Below, piece by piece: positions 56,919 through 64,000 of a stretch of 64,000 bases of DNA; the stretch's first letter is position 1, and each line of letters opens with the position of its first letter. Position numbers and translations under genes: made by a program. Below the pieces are notes generated by a model. The model was not told where the DNA came from. It searched no databases and saw nothing but the letters and a program-made list of their open reading frames with translations. The DNA is from Escherichia coli (GTDB taxonomy: Bacteria; Pseudomonadota; Gammaproteobacteria; Enterobacterales; Enterobacteriaceae), in the NCBI RefSeq assembly GCF_017348835.2, contig NZ_CP071375.1, one strand, 5' to 3'.

Positions 56919-58595
56919 TTACCCCGTCACCACCTCACCCGCCGGTGGCGTTTCCAGCAGTTCCAGCATAGTACGGGCAATTTCACGCTCACCCATCACT
57001 ACCTGATTCGCGCCACGTTCGGTGATATACGCCACTTCATCGTCGTAATGGGCGCGGGCGATAATCTCAATATCCGGGTTTTTCGCGCGGGCAGACGCCA
57101 CAATCTCGCCTGCTTCATAACCGTTGGGAATCGTCAGGATCAGCCATTTTGCACATTCCAGATGCGCCAGTTGCATAATTTCTTCGTTCGCCGCATTGCC
57201 CAATACAGCGCGGACCCCACGCTCTCGCAGCTCATCAACACGGGTTCGTGACGTCTCAATCACCACCAGCGGAATATCAGAGGCGAGCAATTTCTCCCCC
57301 AGCAGGCTGCCTACACGACCGTAACCAACCAGTAGCGCATGGTTGCAAATATCCACTGGGATCTGCTTCTCTTCTTCGATTGCCTCTTCCAGCGTCTGCT
57401 CTTCCAGCGTTTCGGTCTTCGCCAGATATTTCTCCAGCAGCGCAAACAGGACCGGGTTGAGCATAATCGACAAAATCGCACCTGCCAGTACCAGGTTCTG
57501 CCCGGCTTGCGGCAACAGATCCAGCGCCATGCCCAGTCCCGCCAGGATAAACGCGAACTCACCAATTTGCGCCAGGCTGGCGGCGATAGTTAATGCCGTA
57601 CGTTGGGAGTGACCAAACAGTCGCACCAGGAAAAACGCGGCTAACGATTTACCAAACAGAATAATCGCCAGCGTCGCCAGCACTGCCAGCGGTTGCTGAA
57701 TCAGAATTAACGGATCAAACAACATCCCGACGGAGACAAAAAACAGCACCGCAAACGCGTCGCGCAATGGCAGCGTATCGTGGGCGGCACGGTGACTCAG
57801 TTCAGACTCGTTCAGTACCATCCCGGCAAAGAACGCACCGAGTGCAAAGGAGACATCAAACAGCTCCACCGCACCAAAGGCAATCCCTAACGCCAGCGCC
57901 AGCACCGACAGGGTAAACAGCTCGCGAGAACCGGTTGCCGCGCTGCGTGCCATAATCCACGGCACCAGACGGCGACCTACCAGCATCATAATGGCGATAA
58001 ACGCGATCACTTTGCCGATGGTGATCCCCATATCGACTGCAAGAGTGGCAAAGCCCACATCGCCCTGTTCCATCATTCCTGCCACTGCGGGCAGCAACAC
58101 CAGCGTCAGAACCATTACCAGGTCTTCCACAATCAACCAACCGATGGCGATTTGCCCACGTTGACTATCAATTAATTGCCGTTCTTCAAGTGCGCGCAGT
58201 AACACCACGGTACTGGCGGTGGAAAGACATAAGCCGAACACGATACCGGTCATTAACGACCAGCCCAGCACGGCAGAGAGCGCCATACCCAGCAGCGTCG
58301 CCACGGCTATCTGGGCGATCGCGCCGGGAATGGCGATGGCCTTTACCGCCATCAAATCCTTCAGCGAAAAGTGCAGACCCACGCCAAACATCAACAGAAT
58401 GACGCCCAGTTCAGCCAGTTCCGGCGCAAGCTTGGTATCGGCAACAAAGCCCGGAGTGAATGGTCCTGCCAGCACACCCGCTAACAGATATCCCACCAGA
58501 GGAGAAATACGTAGTTTATTGGCCAGCATGCCGAGGATAAAGGCGAGCACAAGGCCGCCAACAATGGTGGTGATAAGCGGGGTGGCGTGATGCAT
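56919..58595 (-). CDS. ybaL: CPA2-family monovalent cation:proton antiporter with C-terminal RCK/TrkA-N domain YbaL, 558 aa
   Basis: ORF-track full length; multi-TM N-terminus; Rossmann-like GYGRVG in C-terminal domain. Confidence 0.93.
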   Translation of the reverse strand: MHHATPLITTIVGGLVLAFILGMLANKLRISPLVGYLLAGVLAGPFTPGFVADTKLAPELAELGVILLMFGVGLHFSLKDLMAVKAIAIPGAIAQIAVATLLGMALSAVLGWSLMTGIVFGLCLSTASTVVLLRALEERQLIDSQRGQIAIGWLIVEDLVMVLTLVLLPAVAGMMEQGDVGFATLAVDMGITIGKVIAFIAIMMLVGRRLVPWIMARSAATGSRELFTLSVLALALGIAFGAVELFDVSFALGAFFAGMVLNESELSHRAAHDTLPLRDAFAVLFFVSVGMLFDPLILIQQPLAVLATLAIILFGKSLAAFFLVRLFGHSQRTALTIAASLAQIGEFAFILAGLGMALDLLPQAGQNLVLAGAILSIMLNPVLFALLEKYLAKTETLEEQTLEEAIEEEKQIPVDICNHALLVGYGRVGSLLGEKLLASDIPLVVIETSRTRVDELRERGVRAVLGNAANEEIMQLAHLECAKWLILTIPNGYEAGEIVASARAKNPDIEIIARAHYDDEVAYITERGANQVVMGEREIARTMLELLETPPAGEVVTG

Positions 58596-58800
58596 TCCGT
58601 CTCCTTTTCCTGGTGGTTATTGTCCATTTTTGGCCGGGAAAACCAAAATTACAGGTAATAGTTTATGACAATTTCATTGATGATGTTCATGAATAATTAT
58701 TGAATTTTGCAGAAAAATGGAATTAGCTGCAAAAAAAGCACGGATCGGAAAACAGAAGGCGGTTTAACAGAGGAAAGGCTTATGGCGACTGTAAAACGAT

Positions 58801-58825
58801 GCAGCCAAAGTTTGCCTTTGGCTGC
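58801..58825 (-). terminator. fsr terminator-like hairpin (perfect 10-bp stem GCAGCCAAAG-TTTGC-CTTTGGCTGC)
   Basis: Perfect inverted repeat immediately downstream of fsr stop; weak U-tract on minus strand. Confidence 0.5.
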
Positions 58826-58832
58826 AATGAAA

Positions 58833-60053
58833 TCAGTCTTTATGCCGGTTATCAGGCAGGAATATGGTCAACATCCCCAATAGTGGCAGGAAAGCACAGA
58901 TTTTATAGACTAACTCGATGCTGGTGTGATCGGCGATAAGCCCCAGAACTGCCGCTCCCAGACCTCCCATGCCGAAAGCAAAACCGAAAAAGAGTCCAGA
59001 AACCATACCGATACGTCCCGGAAGCAGCTCCTGAGCGTAGACCAGAATGGCAGAGAATGCCGAAGCGAGGATAAATCCAATAATCACCGTTAAAACCCCC
59101 GTCCAGTGCAGGCTGGCGTAGGGTAAAATCAGCGTAAACGGCGCAACGCCGAGGATAGAGCCCCAAATCACATATTTCCGCCCAATTTTATCCCCTACAG
59201 GCCCGCCGATCACCGTACCTGCCGCAACGGCAAACAGGAAGGCAAACAGATGAAGCTGAGCATTCTGGATAGATAATCCGAATTTTTGCATCAGATAAAA
59301 GGTGTAATAGCTGCTGATGCTCGCCATATAGAAATATTTCGAGAAAATGAGGATTAACAGAATGCTGACCGCCAGTACCACTTTGTTGCGCGGCAGTGGA
59401 TTGATAATCGTCGCTTTGGGTTTTCCTTTATTCATTCGGTGCTGTGCCGAGTACCAACGGCTGATTTGCGCCAACACCACGATCGCCAGCAGTGCCGCAA
59501 GCACAAACCAGGCAACGTTGCCTTTGCCATAAGGCGCGATAATCACCGCCGCCAGCAAGGGTCCCAGGGAACTGCCAAAGTTGCCGCCGACCTGAAAGAT
59601 AGATTGCGCCAGGCCATGCCGCCCGCCGGAAGCCATACGGGCTACGCGAGAAGATTCCGGATGAAAGACCGATGAACCGGTACCGACCAGCGCCGCCGCC
59701 AGCAGAACTGCGCCAAAACTGCCCGCCAGCGCAAGCAGCACCAGACCACTTAAGGTAAAGCACATGCCAATTGGCAACGACCACGGCATCGGATATTTAT
59801 CGGTCCAGTAGCCGACCACTGGTTGCAGTAGCGAAGAGGCGAGCTGGAAGGTGAGGGTTATCATGCCAATCTGCATAAATGTCAGAGAAAATTCTGACTG
59901 AAGCAGCGGATAAATCGCCAGAATCAGCGATTGGATCATGTCGTTCAGCAGATGTGAGAGGCTGATAGCACCTAAAATACCAAACGATGTTCGGGCCTTG
60001 GTCGTTGACGCAGCCGCGCCCGCCACAGGCTGGGTTTGTTCACTCATTGCCAT
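58833..60053 (-). CDS. fsr: Fosmidomycin resistance MFS transporter Fsr, 406 aa
   Basis: ORF-track full length; MAMSEQTQPVAGAAASTTKARTSFGILG. Confidence 0.94.
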   Translation of the reverse strand: MAMSEQTQPVAGAAASTTKARTSFGILGAISLSHLLNDMIQSLILAIYPLLQSEFSLTFMQIGMITLTFQLASSLLQPVVGYWTDKYPMPWSLPIGMCFTLSGLVLLALAGSFGAVLLAAALVGTGSSVFHPESSRVARMASGGRHGLAQSIFQVGGNFGSSLGPLLAAVIIAPYGKGNVAWFVLAALLAIVVLAQISRWYSAQHRMNKGKPKATIINPLPRNKVVLAVSILLILIFSKYFYMASISSYYTFYLMQKFGLSIQNAQLHLFAFLFAVAAGTVIGGPVGDKIGRKYVIWGSILGVAPFTLILPYASLHWTGVLTVIIGFILASAFSAILVYAQELLPGRIGMVSGLFFGFAFGMGGLGAAVLGLIADHTSIELVYKICAFLPLLGMLTIFLPDNRHKD

Positions 60054-60270
60054 AGGAAAGTCACTTTTTCAGGGTTGCGATGTAAAGAATGATCTTATTT
60101 GTGATTATTACCCGACTAACATACCTGTATGCGTCGCCTGAAGGAAGTCTCAACGCTGAATACAGAATTTCTAATCTGGATGCAGATTTATCTTCACCGG
60201 ACGCAGACTTGTCTATGATGTCGCGTCATACTATTTTTCAACACGTTGAAATCAGGTCAGGGAGAGAAGT

Positions 60271-61923
60271 ATGAAATTATTGCAGCGGGGCGTGGCGTTA
60301 GCACTGTTAACCACATTTACACTGGCGAGTGAAGCTGCTCTGGCGTATGAGCAGGATAAAACCTACAAAATTACAGTTCTGCATACCAATGATCATCATG
60401 GGCATTTTTGGCGCAATGAATATGGCGAATATGGTCTGGCGGCGCAAAAAACGCTGGTGGATGGTATCCGCAAAGAGGTTGCGGCTGAAGGCGGTAGCGT
60501 GCTGCTACTTTCCGGTGGCGACATTAACACTGGCGTGCCCGAGTCTGACTTACAGGATGCCGAACCTGATTTTCGCGGTATGAATCTGGTGGGCTATGAC
60601 GCGATGGCGATCGGTAATCATGAATTTGATAATCCGCTCACCGTATTACGCCAGCAGGAAAAGTGGGCCAAGTTCCCGTTGCTTTCCGCGAATATCTACC
60701 AGAAAAGTACCGGCGAGCGCCTGTTTAAACCATGGGCGCTATTTAAGCGTCAGGATCTGAAAATTGCCGTTATTGGCCTGACGACGGATGACACAGCGAA
60801 GTTAGGCAACCCAGAAAACTTCACCGATATTGAGTTCCGTAAGCCCGCTGATGAAGCGAAGCTAGTGATTCAGGAGCTGCAACAGACAGAAAAGCCAGAC
60901 ATTATTATCGCGGCGACCCATATGGGGCATTACGACAATGGTGAGCACGGCTCTAACGCACCGGGCGATGTGGAGATGGCGCGCGCGCTGCCTGCCGGAT
61001 CGCTGGCGATGATCGTCGGTGGTCACTCGCAAGATCCGGTCTGCATGGCGGCAGAAAACAAAAAACAGGTCGATTACGTGCCGGGTACGCCATGCAAACC
61101 GGATCAACAAAACGGCATCTGGATTGTGCAGGCGCATGAGTGGGGCAAATACGTGGGACGGGCTGATTTTGAGTTTCGTAATGGCGAAATGAAAATGGTT
61201 AACTATCAGCTGATTCCGGTGAACCTGAAGAAGAAAGTGACCTGGGAAGACGGGAAAAGCGAGCGCGTGCTGTACACCCCTGAAATCGCTGAAAACCAGC
61301 AAATGATCTCGCTGTTATCGCCGTTCCAGAACAAAGGCAAAGCGCAGCTGGAAGTGAAAATAGGCGAAACCAATGGTCGTCTGGAAGGCGATCGTGACAA
61401 AGTGCGTTTTGTACAGACCAATATGGGGCGGTTAATTCTGGCAGCACAAATGGATCGCACTGGTGCCGACTTTGCGGTGATGAGCGGAGGCGGAATTCGT
61501 GATTCTATCGAAGCAGGCGATATCAGCTATAAAAACGTGCTGAAAGTGCAGCCATTCGGCAATGTGGTGGTGTATGCCGACATGACCGGTAAAGAGGTGA
61601 TTGATTACCTGACCGCCGTCGCGCAGATGAAGCCAGATTCAGGTGCCTACCCGCAATTTGCCAACGTTAGCTTTGTGGCGAAAGACGGCAAACTGAACGA
61701 CCTTAAAATCAAAGGCGAACCGGTCGATCCAGCGAAAACTTACCGTATGGCGACATTAAACTTCAATGCCACCGGCGGTGATGGCTATCCGCGCCTTGAT
61801 AACAAACCGGGCTATGTGAATACCGGCTTTATTGATGCCGAAGTGCTGAAAGCGTATATCCAGAAAAGCTCGCCGCTGGATGTGAGTGTTTATGAACCGA
61901 AAGGTGAGGTGAGCTGGCAGTAA
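60271..61923 (+). CDS. ushA: Periplasmic UDP-sugar hydrolase / 5'-nucleotidase UshA, 550 aa
   Basis: ORF-track full length; signal peptide; metallophosphoesterase motifs (HTNDHHG, GGDINTG, GNHEFD). Confidence 0.96.
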   Translation: MKLLQRGVALALLTTFTLASEAALAYEQDKTYKITVLHTNDHHGHFWRNEYGEYGLAAQKTLVDGIRKEVAAEGGSVLLLSGGDINTGVPESDLQDAEPDFRGMNLVGYDAMAIGNHEFDNPLTVLRQQEKWAKFPLLSANIYQKSTGERLFKPWALFKRQDLKIAVIGLTTDDTAKLGNPENFTDIEFRKPADEAKLVIQELQQTEKPDIIIAATHMGHYDNGEHGSNAPGDVEMARALPAGSLAMIVGGHSQDPVCMAAENKKQVDYVPGTPCKPDQQNGIWIVQAHEWGKYVGRADFEFRNGEMKMVNYQLIPVNLKKKVTWEDGKSERVLYTPEIAENQQMISLLSPFQNKGKAQLEVKIGETNGRLEGDRDKVRFVQTNMGRLILAAQMDRTGADFAVMSGGGIRDSIEAGDISYKNVLKVQPFGNVVVYADMTGKEVIDYLTAVAQMKPDSGAYPQFANVSFVAKDGKLNDLKIKGEPVDPAKTYRMATLNFNATGGDGYPRLDNKPGYVNTGFIDAEVLKAYIQKSSPLDVSVYEPKGEVSWQ

Positions 61924-61930
61924 TCCGAAA

Positions 61931-61954
61931 GTGCCGGATATTTGCATCCGGCAC
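61931..61954. terminator. Hairpin between convergent ushA and ybaK (GTGCCGGAT-ATTTGC-ATCCGGCAC)
   Basis: Perfect 9-bp stem between the two stop codons; flanking U-tracts weak. Confidence 0.5.
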
Positions 61955-61959
61955 AATGC

Positions 61960-62454
<495 letters not shown>

Positions 62455-62525
62455 TTAAACAAAAAAACGAAGCAAGCATACGCCTGATGGCGGTCCAAAA
62501 AAAAGAGTCATCTTGCCTAAGAGTA

Positions 62526-62558
62526 TTGGCAGGATGGTGAGATTGAGCGACAATCGAG
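62526..62558 (+). promoter_or_regulatory. Putative sigma-70 promoter of chiX: -35 TTGGCA, 17-bp spacer, -10 GACAAT
   Basis: Hexamers read directly upstream of the ChiX 5' end; transcription start site not verified. Confidence 0.45.
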
Positions 62559-62560
62559 TT

Positions 62561-62644
62561 ACACCGTCGCTTAAAGTGACGGCATAATAATAAAAAAATG
62601 AAATTCCTCTTTGACGGGCCAATAGCGATATTGGCCATTTTTTT
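62561..62644 (+). ncRNA. chiX: ChiX (MicM/SroB) Hfq-dependent small RNA, about 84 nt, with terminator hairpin GGCCAATAGCGATATTGGCC plus U7
   Basis: Sequence ACACCGTCGCTTAAAGTGACGGCATAATAATAAAAAAATGAAATTCCTCTTTGACGGGCCAATAGCGATATTGGCCATTTTTTT matches remembered ChiX including seed CUCUUUGACGGG; coordinates frame-checked. Confidence 0.9.
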
Positions 62645-63437
62645 AGCGCAACATTTGCGGTAAATTCCCTTCTCCATACAGGTGTAGTGCACCGACCGCG
62701 ACCACATATCGCCCCGGCGGCATGGCGCGTAATTTATCCCGCCAGGCGAGATTTCGCTGATGCATCAGCACATCGTACAGCGACTGACTGAACGTATTGG
62801 GCAGCGTTATTTCATTATTTTGCGGCGGCGCATTCAGCCACCAGCTCATCATTTGTTGCAGCAACCGTGCGTTGGTATGCCAGTGGGTCAGCGTATCGTC
62901 CAGCAGTGCCAGTCCTTTGTCAGGGAGCTGGAGCAACATGGTAATCTGGTTTTCAGCCCCTTCCAGTTCAATCACGGGTTTATGTTGTTGCTTCGCCGCC
63001 TGCAATAACTGGTAATCGATACCGTATTCTGCCCGCAGCCCCAGTTTTTGTGCCTGCGTCGCCTGAAGAACCATCGCGATTTGCCACAGCGGTTGGGTAG
63101 AAAAGAGTGACGGAGAAATGCCCATCACCTGGCTAATGTGCTGCAGATTTTGTAATTGCTCCTCGCTAATGCGCTCTTCCAGCGCCTCACAGGCAGGCAA
63201 ATTAGCAAAAGGCGTATCGCTGGTGGAAACATCCGCCTCGACGATCAGCGCATCGGCGTTTTTGAGCTTTTTGAGCAAACGGGTGGGCAGGGGAGCCATA
63301 TCGTGGCTACCCATATGAATACTGCCGAGCAGATGAAAATGGCGATTGCCGGGGAGGGTGATATCAATGGCAGGCCAGGTGTAATGATTACCGCGCAGCG
63401 CGGCCCAAAGCGTTTTTACCCGGTACAACAGATCCAT
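62643..63437 (-). CDS. ybaP: TraB/GumN (Tiki-like) family protein YbaP, 264 aa; function unknown
   Basis: ORF-track full length; GxxH-type motif HLLGSIHMGSHDM typical of the family. Confidence 0.9.
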   Translation of the reverse strand: MDLLYRVKTLWAALRGNHYTWPAIDITLPGNRHFHLLGSIHMGSHDMAPLPTRLLKKLKNADALIVEADVSTSDTPFANLPACEALEERISEEQLQNLQHISQVMGISPSLFSTQPLWQIAMVLQATQAQKLGLRAEYGIDYQLLQAAKQQHKPVIELEGAENQITMLLQLPDKGLALLDDTLTHWHTNARLLQQMMSWWLNAPPQNNEITLPNTFSQSLYDVLMHQRNLAWRDKLRAMPPGRYVVAVGALHLYGEGNLPQMLR

Positions 63438-63574
63438 ACGACCTCCCTTTGTGAAATATCATGCTAGCGCGCGGGGAGGGATGGCGCAAATGGAGTTGGG
63501 GACTTGTTTAATGTGTTTGTATGATTCAGTATGTTCTTGTATCGCTATTCACAGGGAAGCAACAGTTAAAAACT

Positions 63575-63916
63575 ATGAAACAGGCAACAAGAAAACCGAC
63601 GACACCCGGAGATATTCTTCTCTATGAATATCTGGAACCGCTCGCTTTGAAAATCAATGAGTTAGCAGAGTTGCTGCATGTTCATCGTAATAGCGTCAGT
63701 ACACTGATCAATAATAATCGTAAACTCACCACTGAGATGGCATTCCGTCTGGCGAAAGTTTTTGATACCACAGTCGATTTTTGGCTAAACCTCCAGGCGG
63801 CAGTTGATCTTTGGGAAGTTGAAAACAACATGCGCACCCAGGAAGAATTGGGACGGATTGAAACAGTGGCTGAATATTTGGCACGCCGTGAAGAGCGTGC
63901 AAAAAAGGTCGCGTAA
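63575..63916 (+). CDS. ybaQ: XRE/HigA-like helix-turn-helix protein YbaQ, 113 aa (in-frame upstream ATG at 63521 would give 131 aa)
   Basis: ORF-track 63521..63916; start at MKQATRKPTTPGDILLYEYLEPLALKINELAELLHVHRNSVSTLINNNRKLTTEMAFRLAKVF (HTH). Confidence 0.85.
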   Translation: MKQATRKPTTPGDILLYEYLEPLALKINELAELLHVHRNSVSTLINNNRKLTTEMAFRLAKVFDTTVDFWLNLQAAVDLWEVENNMRTQEELGRIETVAEYLARREERAKKVA

Positions 63917-63934
63917 GGCCAAAACATCGCTTCA

Positions 63935-64000
63935 TCTCGTAGGCCGGATAAGGCGTTCACGCCGCATCCGGCATCCGAGTACCATTGCCTGATGCGACGC
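63935..64000. repeat. REP elements after ybaQ (second unit truncated by window end)
   Basis: GTAGGCCGGATAAGGCGTTCACGCCGCATCCGGCA and partial GCCTGATGCGACGC. Confidence 0.75.

Follow-up and report, generated by a model that had tools for sequence, protein, structure and literature searches.

ChiX, for which SroB, MicM and RybC serve as synonyms, is a textbook small RNA (sRNA) under the control of a decoy transcript. In Escherichia coli, it continuously represses chiP, and the induced chb mRNA titrates it and triggers its decay (PMC4098024). Conversely, ChiX is itself sponged by ChiZ, a 5′ fragment of the chiP transcript (PMC7815308). As a class II sRNA, ChiX engages the proximal face of Hfq via its U-tail and the distal face via a strong AAN motif (PMC7987339). 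Its prominence among Hfq ligands is evident from RIL-seq, in which ~5.3 of the 8.1 million Hfq-bound fragments of one library derive from ChiX; in vivo chimeras, also counted in one library, include 2117 of the chbBC-ChiX type and 1594 of the chiZ-ChiX type (PMC10954441). In the K-12 MG1655 record, chiX (b4585) occupies 507204-507287 on the plus strand and is flanked by ybaK and ybaP, both on the minus strand. The same annotation places ybaP at 507286-508080 (-) and hence has the two genes share 2 nt.

The DNA analyzed here, referred to as the window, is a stretch of 64,000 nt from an E. coli chromosome (NZ_CP071375.1). With a probability of roughly 97%, its plus-strand segment 62561-62644 is the chromosomal chiX gene, whose product is a trans-acting sRNA dependent on Hfq. 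The copy is ChiX itself and not a variant, it is already known, and it is identical to the one that has been studied, such that its description adds little beyond confirming the annotation. The identity, anatomy, seed complementarity, synteny and overlap conservation described below were computed in this analysis; what is said of Hfq binding, the regulation of targets and the position of the 3′ end comes from published work on K-12, whose ChiX sequence is the same.

Identity and genomic setting of chiX

A scan of window positions 58000-64000 with Rfam places the family RF00368 (sroB) at 62561-62644 (+), where model positions 1-83 of 83 are covered at 82.1 bits, the gathering threshold being 44. 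The original prediction, which was made from the letters alone, had recognized ChiX at precisely these coordinates, and the Rfam score and the alignment to the K-12 sroB/chiX locus both sustain it. The segment is 84 nt long and shares 100% identity with K-12 chiX. When the alignment to MG1655 is extended to 62440-62700, a single mismatch is found in 261 bases, and it falls inside ybaP; the 121 bases 5′ of ChiX show no change. A 321-base query around ChiX is also 100% identical to an O157:H7 genome, among others. Across complete E. coli genomes, one copy of ChiX is present in 5422 of 5426, with 5011 of those copies being at least 99% identical.

These results leave a negligible chance that the match is a decayed or fortuitous look-alike that gives rise to no functional RNA. 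Such a reading is at odds with a full-length model match at E = 1.7e-11, with the base-for-base identity to an expressed K-12 gene and its promoter region, and with the near-universal occurrence of ChiX in E. coli as a single-copy gene. No point in its support was found, and it is refuted by the Rfam score, the K-12 identity and the E. coli distribution. Two of the 5422 E. coli matches are on records typed as plasmids.

The gene order in the window is the canonical ushA / ybaK(-) / chiX(+) / ybaP(-) / ybaQ. The UshA gene spans 60271-61923 (+), as judged from the open reading frame (ORF) list and a check of the neighbors. It is followed by ybaK at 61960-62439 (-), which encodes the Cys-tRNA(Pro) deacylase (NCBIfam NF007951, E = 2e-99) and forms the upstream flank of chiX. 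On the other side lies ybaP at 62643-63437 (-), a 264-residue member of the TraB/PrgY/GumN family that is supported by the ORF list, a Pfam match (PF01963, E = 5e-43) and the K-12 annotation. Next comes ybaQ at 63575-63916 (+), coding for a HigA-family antitoxin-like DNA-binding protein (TIGR02607, E = 3e-30). The placement of ChiX between ybaK and ybaP, as originally claimed, is thus confirmed for both neighbors by family searches and by the K-12 annotation.

Two further features of the region were noted. Antisense to chiX, mechanical ORFs run at 62423-62707 (-) and 62455-62622 (-) across the intergenic region that holds the known RNA gene. At the far end, 63942-64000 gives a partial match to naRNA4 (REP-derived) on both strands, which is clipped by the end of the window and scores 50.7 bits on the plus strand, short of the gathering threshold of 59.5; it probably represents a REP element downstream of ybaQ.

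The PGAP-annotated complete E. coli genomes among the matches listed (H1-H27) carry ybaP as the sole feature under the ChiX match, apparently owing to the 2-nt overlap between the two genes, and leave chiX unannotated. The K-12 reference record, unlike these genomes, annotates chiX.

Candidate promoter, fold and seed of ChiX

The start site of ChiX is that of the K-12 annotation, transferred from the identical sequence. Upstream of it, a candidate promoter at 62526-62554 (+) consists of a -35 element TTGGCA (62526-62531), a 17-nt spacer and a -10 element GACAAT (62549-62554). It agrees with the consensus at 9 of 12 positions, ends 7 nt upstream of the annotated 5′ end, and is the sole sigma-70-like site in 62300-63600 when both strands are scanned. 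The heptamer TTGGCAG and the element GAGCGACAAT are conserved across Enterobacteriaceae homologues. A run of eight A residues at 62498-62505 (+), roughly 63 to 56 nt upstream of the ChiX start, could act as an UP-element-like A-tract for this promoter; on the minus strand, the same run reads as U8 upstream of ybaK.

ChiX folds into a 5′ hairpin, an unpaired segment comprising an A-rich linker and the seed, and a terminator stem, with a free energy of -24.1 kcal/mol (z = -3.9 versus shuffles). The 5′ stem-loop at 62564-62582 (+) has 8 bp, CCGUCGCU/AGUGACGG, closed by a UAA loop in both the minimum-free-energy and the centroid folds. The linker at 62586-62603 (+), as read from the sequence, starts with AAU AAU AAA AAA (62586-62597) and continues with AUG AAA, and it probably provides the contact with the Hfq distal face. 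The intrinsic terminator, 62617-62644 (+), comprises an 8-bp stem, GGCCAAUA/UAUUGGCC (62617-62636), with a GCGA loop, followed by an A and seven U residues (62638-62644); four of the eight pairs are G-C, according to the terminator scan and the fold. The sequence therefore contains both traits of a class II sRNA, namely four consecutive AAN triplets and a terminator with a U-tail. Term-seq maps the ChiX 3′ end to K-12 position 507287 (+), which corresponds to window position 62644, under three growth conditions and with very high scores (PMC7815308 supplementary file 1).

Homologues were collected with a pattern made of the seed and the start of the terminator (AAATTCCTCTTTGACNGGCC), taking one genome per species, which returned at least 120 loci. 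The invariance of the seed in this set is circular, since the pattern required it. Nearly all of the matched loci are from Enterobacterales. Of the loci tested against the sroB model, all 11 from different Enterobacterales genera score at or above the gathering threshold, and the one non-enterobacterial control falls short of it. A match in a Lindowbacteria metagenome-assembled genome was set aside as a chance hit of the pattern, as it lacks the T tract, an sroB hit, ybaK and ybaP.

The consensus fold of the 107 distinct homologue sequences recovers the terminator alone. Its six terminator stem pairs are paired in 107/107 sequences, and AU-to-GC compensatory changes are found at two terminator stem pairs. 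In the 5′ hairpin, the sequence varies between homologues and a hairpin at the same position can be seen by eye; no covariation is claimed for this stem because MAFFT misaligned the divergent 5′ hairpins of the 107 sequences.

The seed consists of two overlapping 12-mers at 62605-62618 (+), defined by their complementarity to K-12 targets. Pairing was assessed on the K-12 chiP and chb sequences, both genes lying outside the window. The first 12-mer, TCCTCTTTGACG (62605-62616, ChiX nt 45-56), is perfectly complementary to CGTCAAAGAGGA in the K-12 chiP leader; this pairing covers the Shine-Dalgarno sequence and stops 8 nt short of the chiP start codon, ATG. The second, CTCTTTGACGGG (62607-62618, ChiX nt 47-58), is perfectly complementary to CCCGTCAAAGAG in the K-12 chbB-chbC spacer. 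By our own estimate, ~7e-4 12-mer matches would be expected by chance at such sequence lengths. Folding of whole-length duplexes between ChiX and the chiP leader or the chbBC spacer yielded overly long pairings interrupted by large internal loops and was discarded in favor of the exact 12-mers. No difference from K-12 was found in the seed, a change that would have counted against the original prediction.

Taken with the published work on K-12, these features outline how the RNA is expected to operate. ChiX would be transcribed from its own sigma-70 promoter and stop at its intrinsic terminator, after which Hfq would hold the U-tail on its proximal face and the A-rich AAN linker on its distal face. 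The single-stranded seed (UCCUCUUUGACGGG) would then pair with the ribosome-binding site of the chiP mRNA and thereby block chitoporin synthesis. Upon induction of the chb operon by chitosugars, the chbB-chbC spacer would pair with the same seed and lead to ChiX decay, with the chiP-derived ChiZ fragment acting as a further sponge. The original prediction had the seed silencing both chiP and chb mRNAs. The former is the silenced target; chb is mainly a decoy, for which silencing is a loose term (PMC4098024, PMC7815308).

The ChiX tail and the ybaP stop codon

The TAA stop codon of ybaP on the minus strand reads TTA at 62643-62645 on the plus strand, where the T tract of the terminator occupies 62638-62644. 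The bases common to both genes are therefore 62643-62644, where the run of seven T ends, and the third base of the stop codon is the A that follows. With the Term-seq 3′ end at 62644, it is the ChiX RNA itself, beyond the gene model, that reaches into the ybaP stop codon; the Term-seq authors class this end as "primary chiX, antisense ybaP" (PMC7815308 supplementary file 1). It had been proposed that the U-tract contains the ybaP stop codon, rendering the sRNA and the ybaP 3′ end physically interlocked. The overlap is real, though this wording goes a little too far, with two of the three stop bases in the tract and the third outside. As a description of the DNA layout, interlocking is accurate and agrees with the K-12 annotation, but no evidence was found of a functional coupling between ChiX and ybaP. 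On the practical side, a clean chiX deletion or a terminator swap removes or alters the stop codon of ybaP, which calls for caution in genome editing.

Among the matches listed, the order ybaK(-)-chiX(+)-ybaP(-) is present at 108 of 121 loci, and the exceptions are mostly truncated contigs. Stop codons were classed over the 116 loci among these matches that have ybaP downstream, and the classes sum to 116. The E. coli arrangement, with TAA on the last two T, accounts for 88 of them; a 1-nt overlap (TGA) is found in 4, a stop inside chiX in 5, and a gap of 4-231 nt in 19. Pantoea and Buttiauxella are examples in which the ybaP stop codon stands apart from the terminator. The 2-nt class is represented in 24 of the 30 named genera among the matches listed (about three quarters of the Enterobacterales species sampled), including Escherichia, Salmonella, Klebsiella, Citrobacter, Serratia, Yersinia, Rahnella and Mixta. 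Members of this class have between 11 and 15 YbaP residues following the conserved LHL motif.

Departures from this arrangement take several forms. In Phytobacter/Kosakonia types, a G takes the place of the A next to the T tract, and the ybaP ORF runs five codons into the terminator (tail …QKNGQ*). At four loci of this type (L042, L049, L067 and L095), the ybaP stop lies 16 nt inside chiX; at a fifth (L027), it lies 86 nt inside, and the ORF extends 29 codons into anti-ChiX. In Proteus (Proteus cibi and Proteus faecis), ybaP adjoins ybaK, with a gap of ~50 nt in Proteus cibi, and an sroB-family RNA lies ~1.5 kb away instead of between the two genes. This would reflect either an insertion of chiX between ybaK and ybaP in the other families or a relocation of chiX in Proteus.

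The overlap is read here as ancestral and doubly constrained. Both genes constrain the junction, since the A after the T tract completes the TAA of ybaP. The T tract would be kept for termination and Hfq binding, and the following A would be kept as part of the ybaP stop, its loss lengthening the protein. The 2-nt overlap would then amount to tight convergent packing, most likely inherited from an early Enterobacterales ancestor, and parsimony would assign it no regulatory role. No selection for coupling is claimed because the events are few, with ~four frame-preserving and two frame-breaking shifts. The overlap is already in the K-12 annotation, and the conservation of the 2-nt junction across genera is a small descriptive addition.

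Transcript ends, a possible antisense RNA and comparison with known systems

A different view of the junction would have the shared hairpin function as a two-way 3′-end element and its conserved overlap as the product of selection. Under this proposal, ybaP, which has no U-tract of its own, would be stopped at the ChiX hairpin through head-on collisions with polymerases that depart from the strong chiX promoter; protection of the ybaP mRNA 3′ end by the hairpin would follow. Precedent exists in the collision-driven bidirectional terminators reported for hundreds of convergent E. coli genes, which are unlike intrinsic ones and require a stem-loop (bioRxiv 10.1101/2022.10.23.513370). On the minus strand, the hairpin comes directly after the ybaP stop codon and is followed by CGUCAAAGAGG instead of U residues, and therefore the ChiX hairpin is not an intrinsic terminator for ybaP. 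The retention of the 2-nt overlap in 24 of the 30 genera despite YbaP tails of varying length would fit selection, but it is equally explained by each gene constraining its own bases, and the shifts of the frame are too few to show selection. The loci with gaps between chiX and ybaP, along with the displaced chiX of Proteus, indicate that coupling is dispensable. Moreover, the Term-seq tables (PMC7815308 supplementary file 1) list the plus-strand end of ChiX and no minus-strand end of ybaP, in disagreement with what is expected of a bidirectional terminator, although ybaP expression may be too weak for detection by Term-seq. A part played by the ChiX hairpin in forming the ybaP 3′ end is conceivable; a two-way element maintained by selection is, on balance, unlikely.

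The next gene pair in the window also has a common hairpin, which speaks for the same proposal. The genes ushA (+) and ybaK (-) are convergent and share a 9-bp hairpin, GTGCCGGAT/ATCCGGCAC, at 61931-61954. By Term-seq, the ushA 3′ end is at K-12 506602, equivalent to window position 61959 (PMC7815308 supplementary file 1), a position 1 nt short of the stop codon of ybaK (61960-61962). No clear U-tract follows this hairpin in the plus direction, and it looks like a shared, bidirectional-type terminator.

The scan for terminators of ybaP on the minus strand gave a sole candidate, 62486-62473, which was rejected for its weak 5-bp stem; it lies ~30 nt upstream of the ybaK start codon.

With ybaP, anti-chiX and ybaK on one strand and no convincing intrinsic terminator after ybaP, read-through of ybaP would produce an RNA fully complementary to ChiX. 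This RNA could act as a cis-encoded sponge, or ChiX could destabilize the mRNA of ybaP and possibly that of ybaK. A candidate for such an RNA is found in the RIL-seq tables (PMC10954441), which contain an Hfq-associated "ybaP.EST3UTR" on the minus strand at K-12 507215-507289 (about window 62572-62646). It is represented by ~9,300 fragments in one library and forms chimeras with the sense strands of ArcZ and SdsR, a pattern that goes beyond a simple strand flip of whole fragments. The RIL-seq authors, however, treat these reads as ChiX and relabel them accordingly, and the fragments amount to ~0.17% of the 5.3 million assigned to ChiX, a proportion that reverse-transcriptase template switching onto ChiX cDNA could yield. 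The chimera with ArcZ has a low odds ratio of 2.6. Neither strand of ChiX pairs convincingly by seed with ArcZ or SdsR: for ChiX or its antisense against these two sRNAs, no convincing seed was found, with z ranging from -0.2 to -2.1. Term-seq likewise lists no minus-strand end at the chiX/ybaP locus. The simplest reading of "ybaP.EST3UTR" is an artefact, e.g., template switching onto the abundant ChiX cDNA, and a ybaP read-through RNA that acts on ChiX or exposes ybaP mRNA to it is very improbable.

Considered together, the forms of selected coupling, in which the hairpin sets the ybaP 3′ end via collisions or ybaP read-through yields an Hfq-bound anti-ChiX sponge, are distinctly doubtful. 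If coupling held in its read-through form, the ChiX circuit would gain a cis-encoded sponge.

Published data also point to transcription past ChiX in the plus direction. A published Rho-dependent region, antisense to ybaP, is centered near K-12 507468 (about window 62825), ~180 nt past the ChiX terminator. Its downstream coverage is 22/1492 reads without bicyclomycin and 115/2100 with it (Rho score 3.7, p = 4e-10), which suggests that a small read-through fraction of ChiX is stopped by Rho inside the ybaP antisense region.

Of the described systems, K-12 ChiX (b4585; RF00368) is the closest, with the same 84 nt, promoter region, flanking genes and 2-nt ybaP overlap. The differences lie around it: the surrounding window is not K-12, one substitution falls inside ybaP, and the loop of the ushA terminator departs from the K-12 sequence in the Term-seq table. 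The bidirectional, collision-type terminators of E. coli resemble the junction in having convergent units with one boundary stem-loop, whereas, read in the plus direction, the ChiX hairpin has the U-tract of a canonical intrinsic terminator. The interlock between an sRNA terminator and a convergent stop codon is not unique to ChiX and ybaP. In E. coli K-12, the intrinsic terminator of ArcZ, likewise an Hfq-dependent sRNA, extends into the 3′ end of arcB, a protein gene convergent with it. The ArcZ/arcB overlap is deeper, at 9 nt (K-12 3350689-3350697): the arcB stop TGA separates the ArcZ terminator stem from the T tract, which encodes the last two lysines of ArcB. In ChiX/ybaP, unlike ArcZ/arcB, the stop codon alone touches the T tract.
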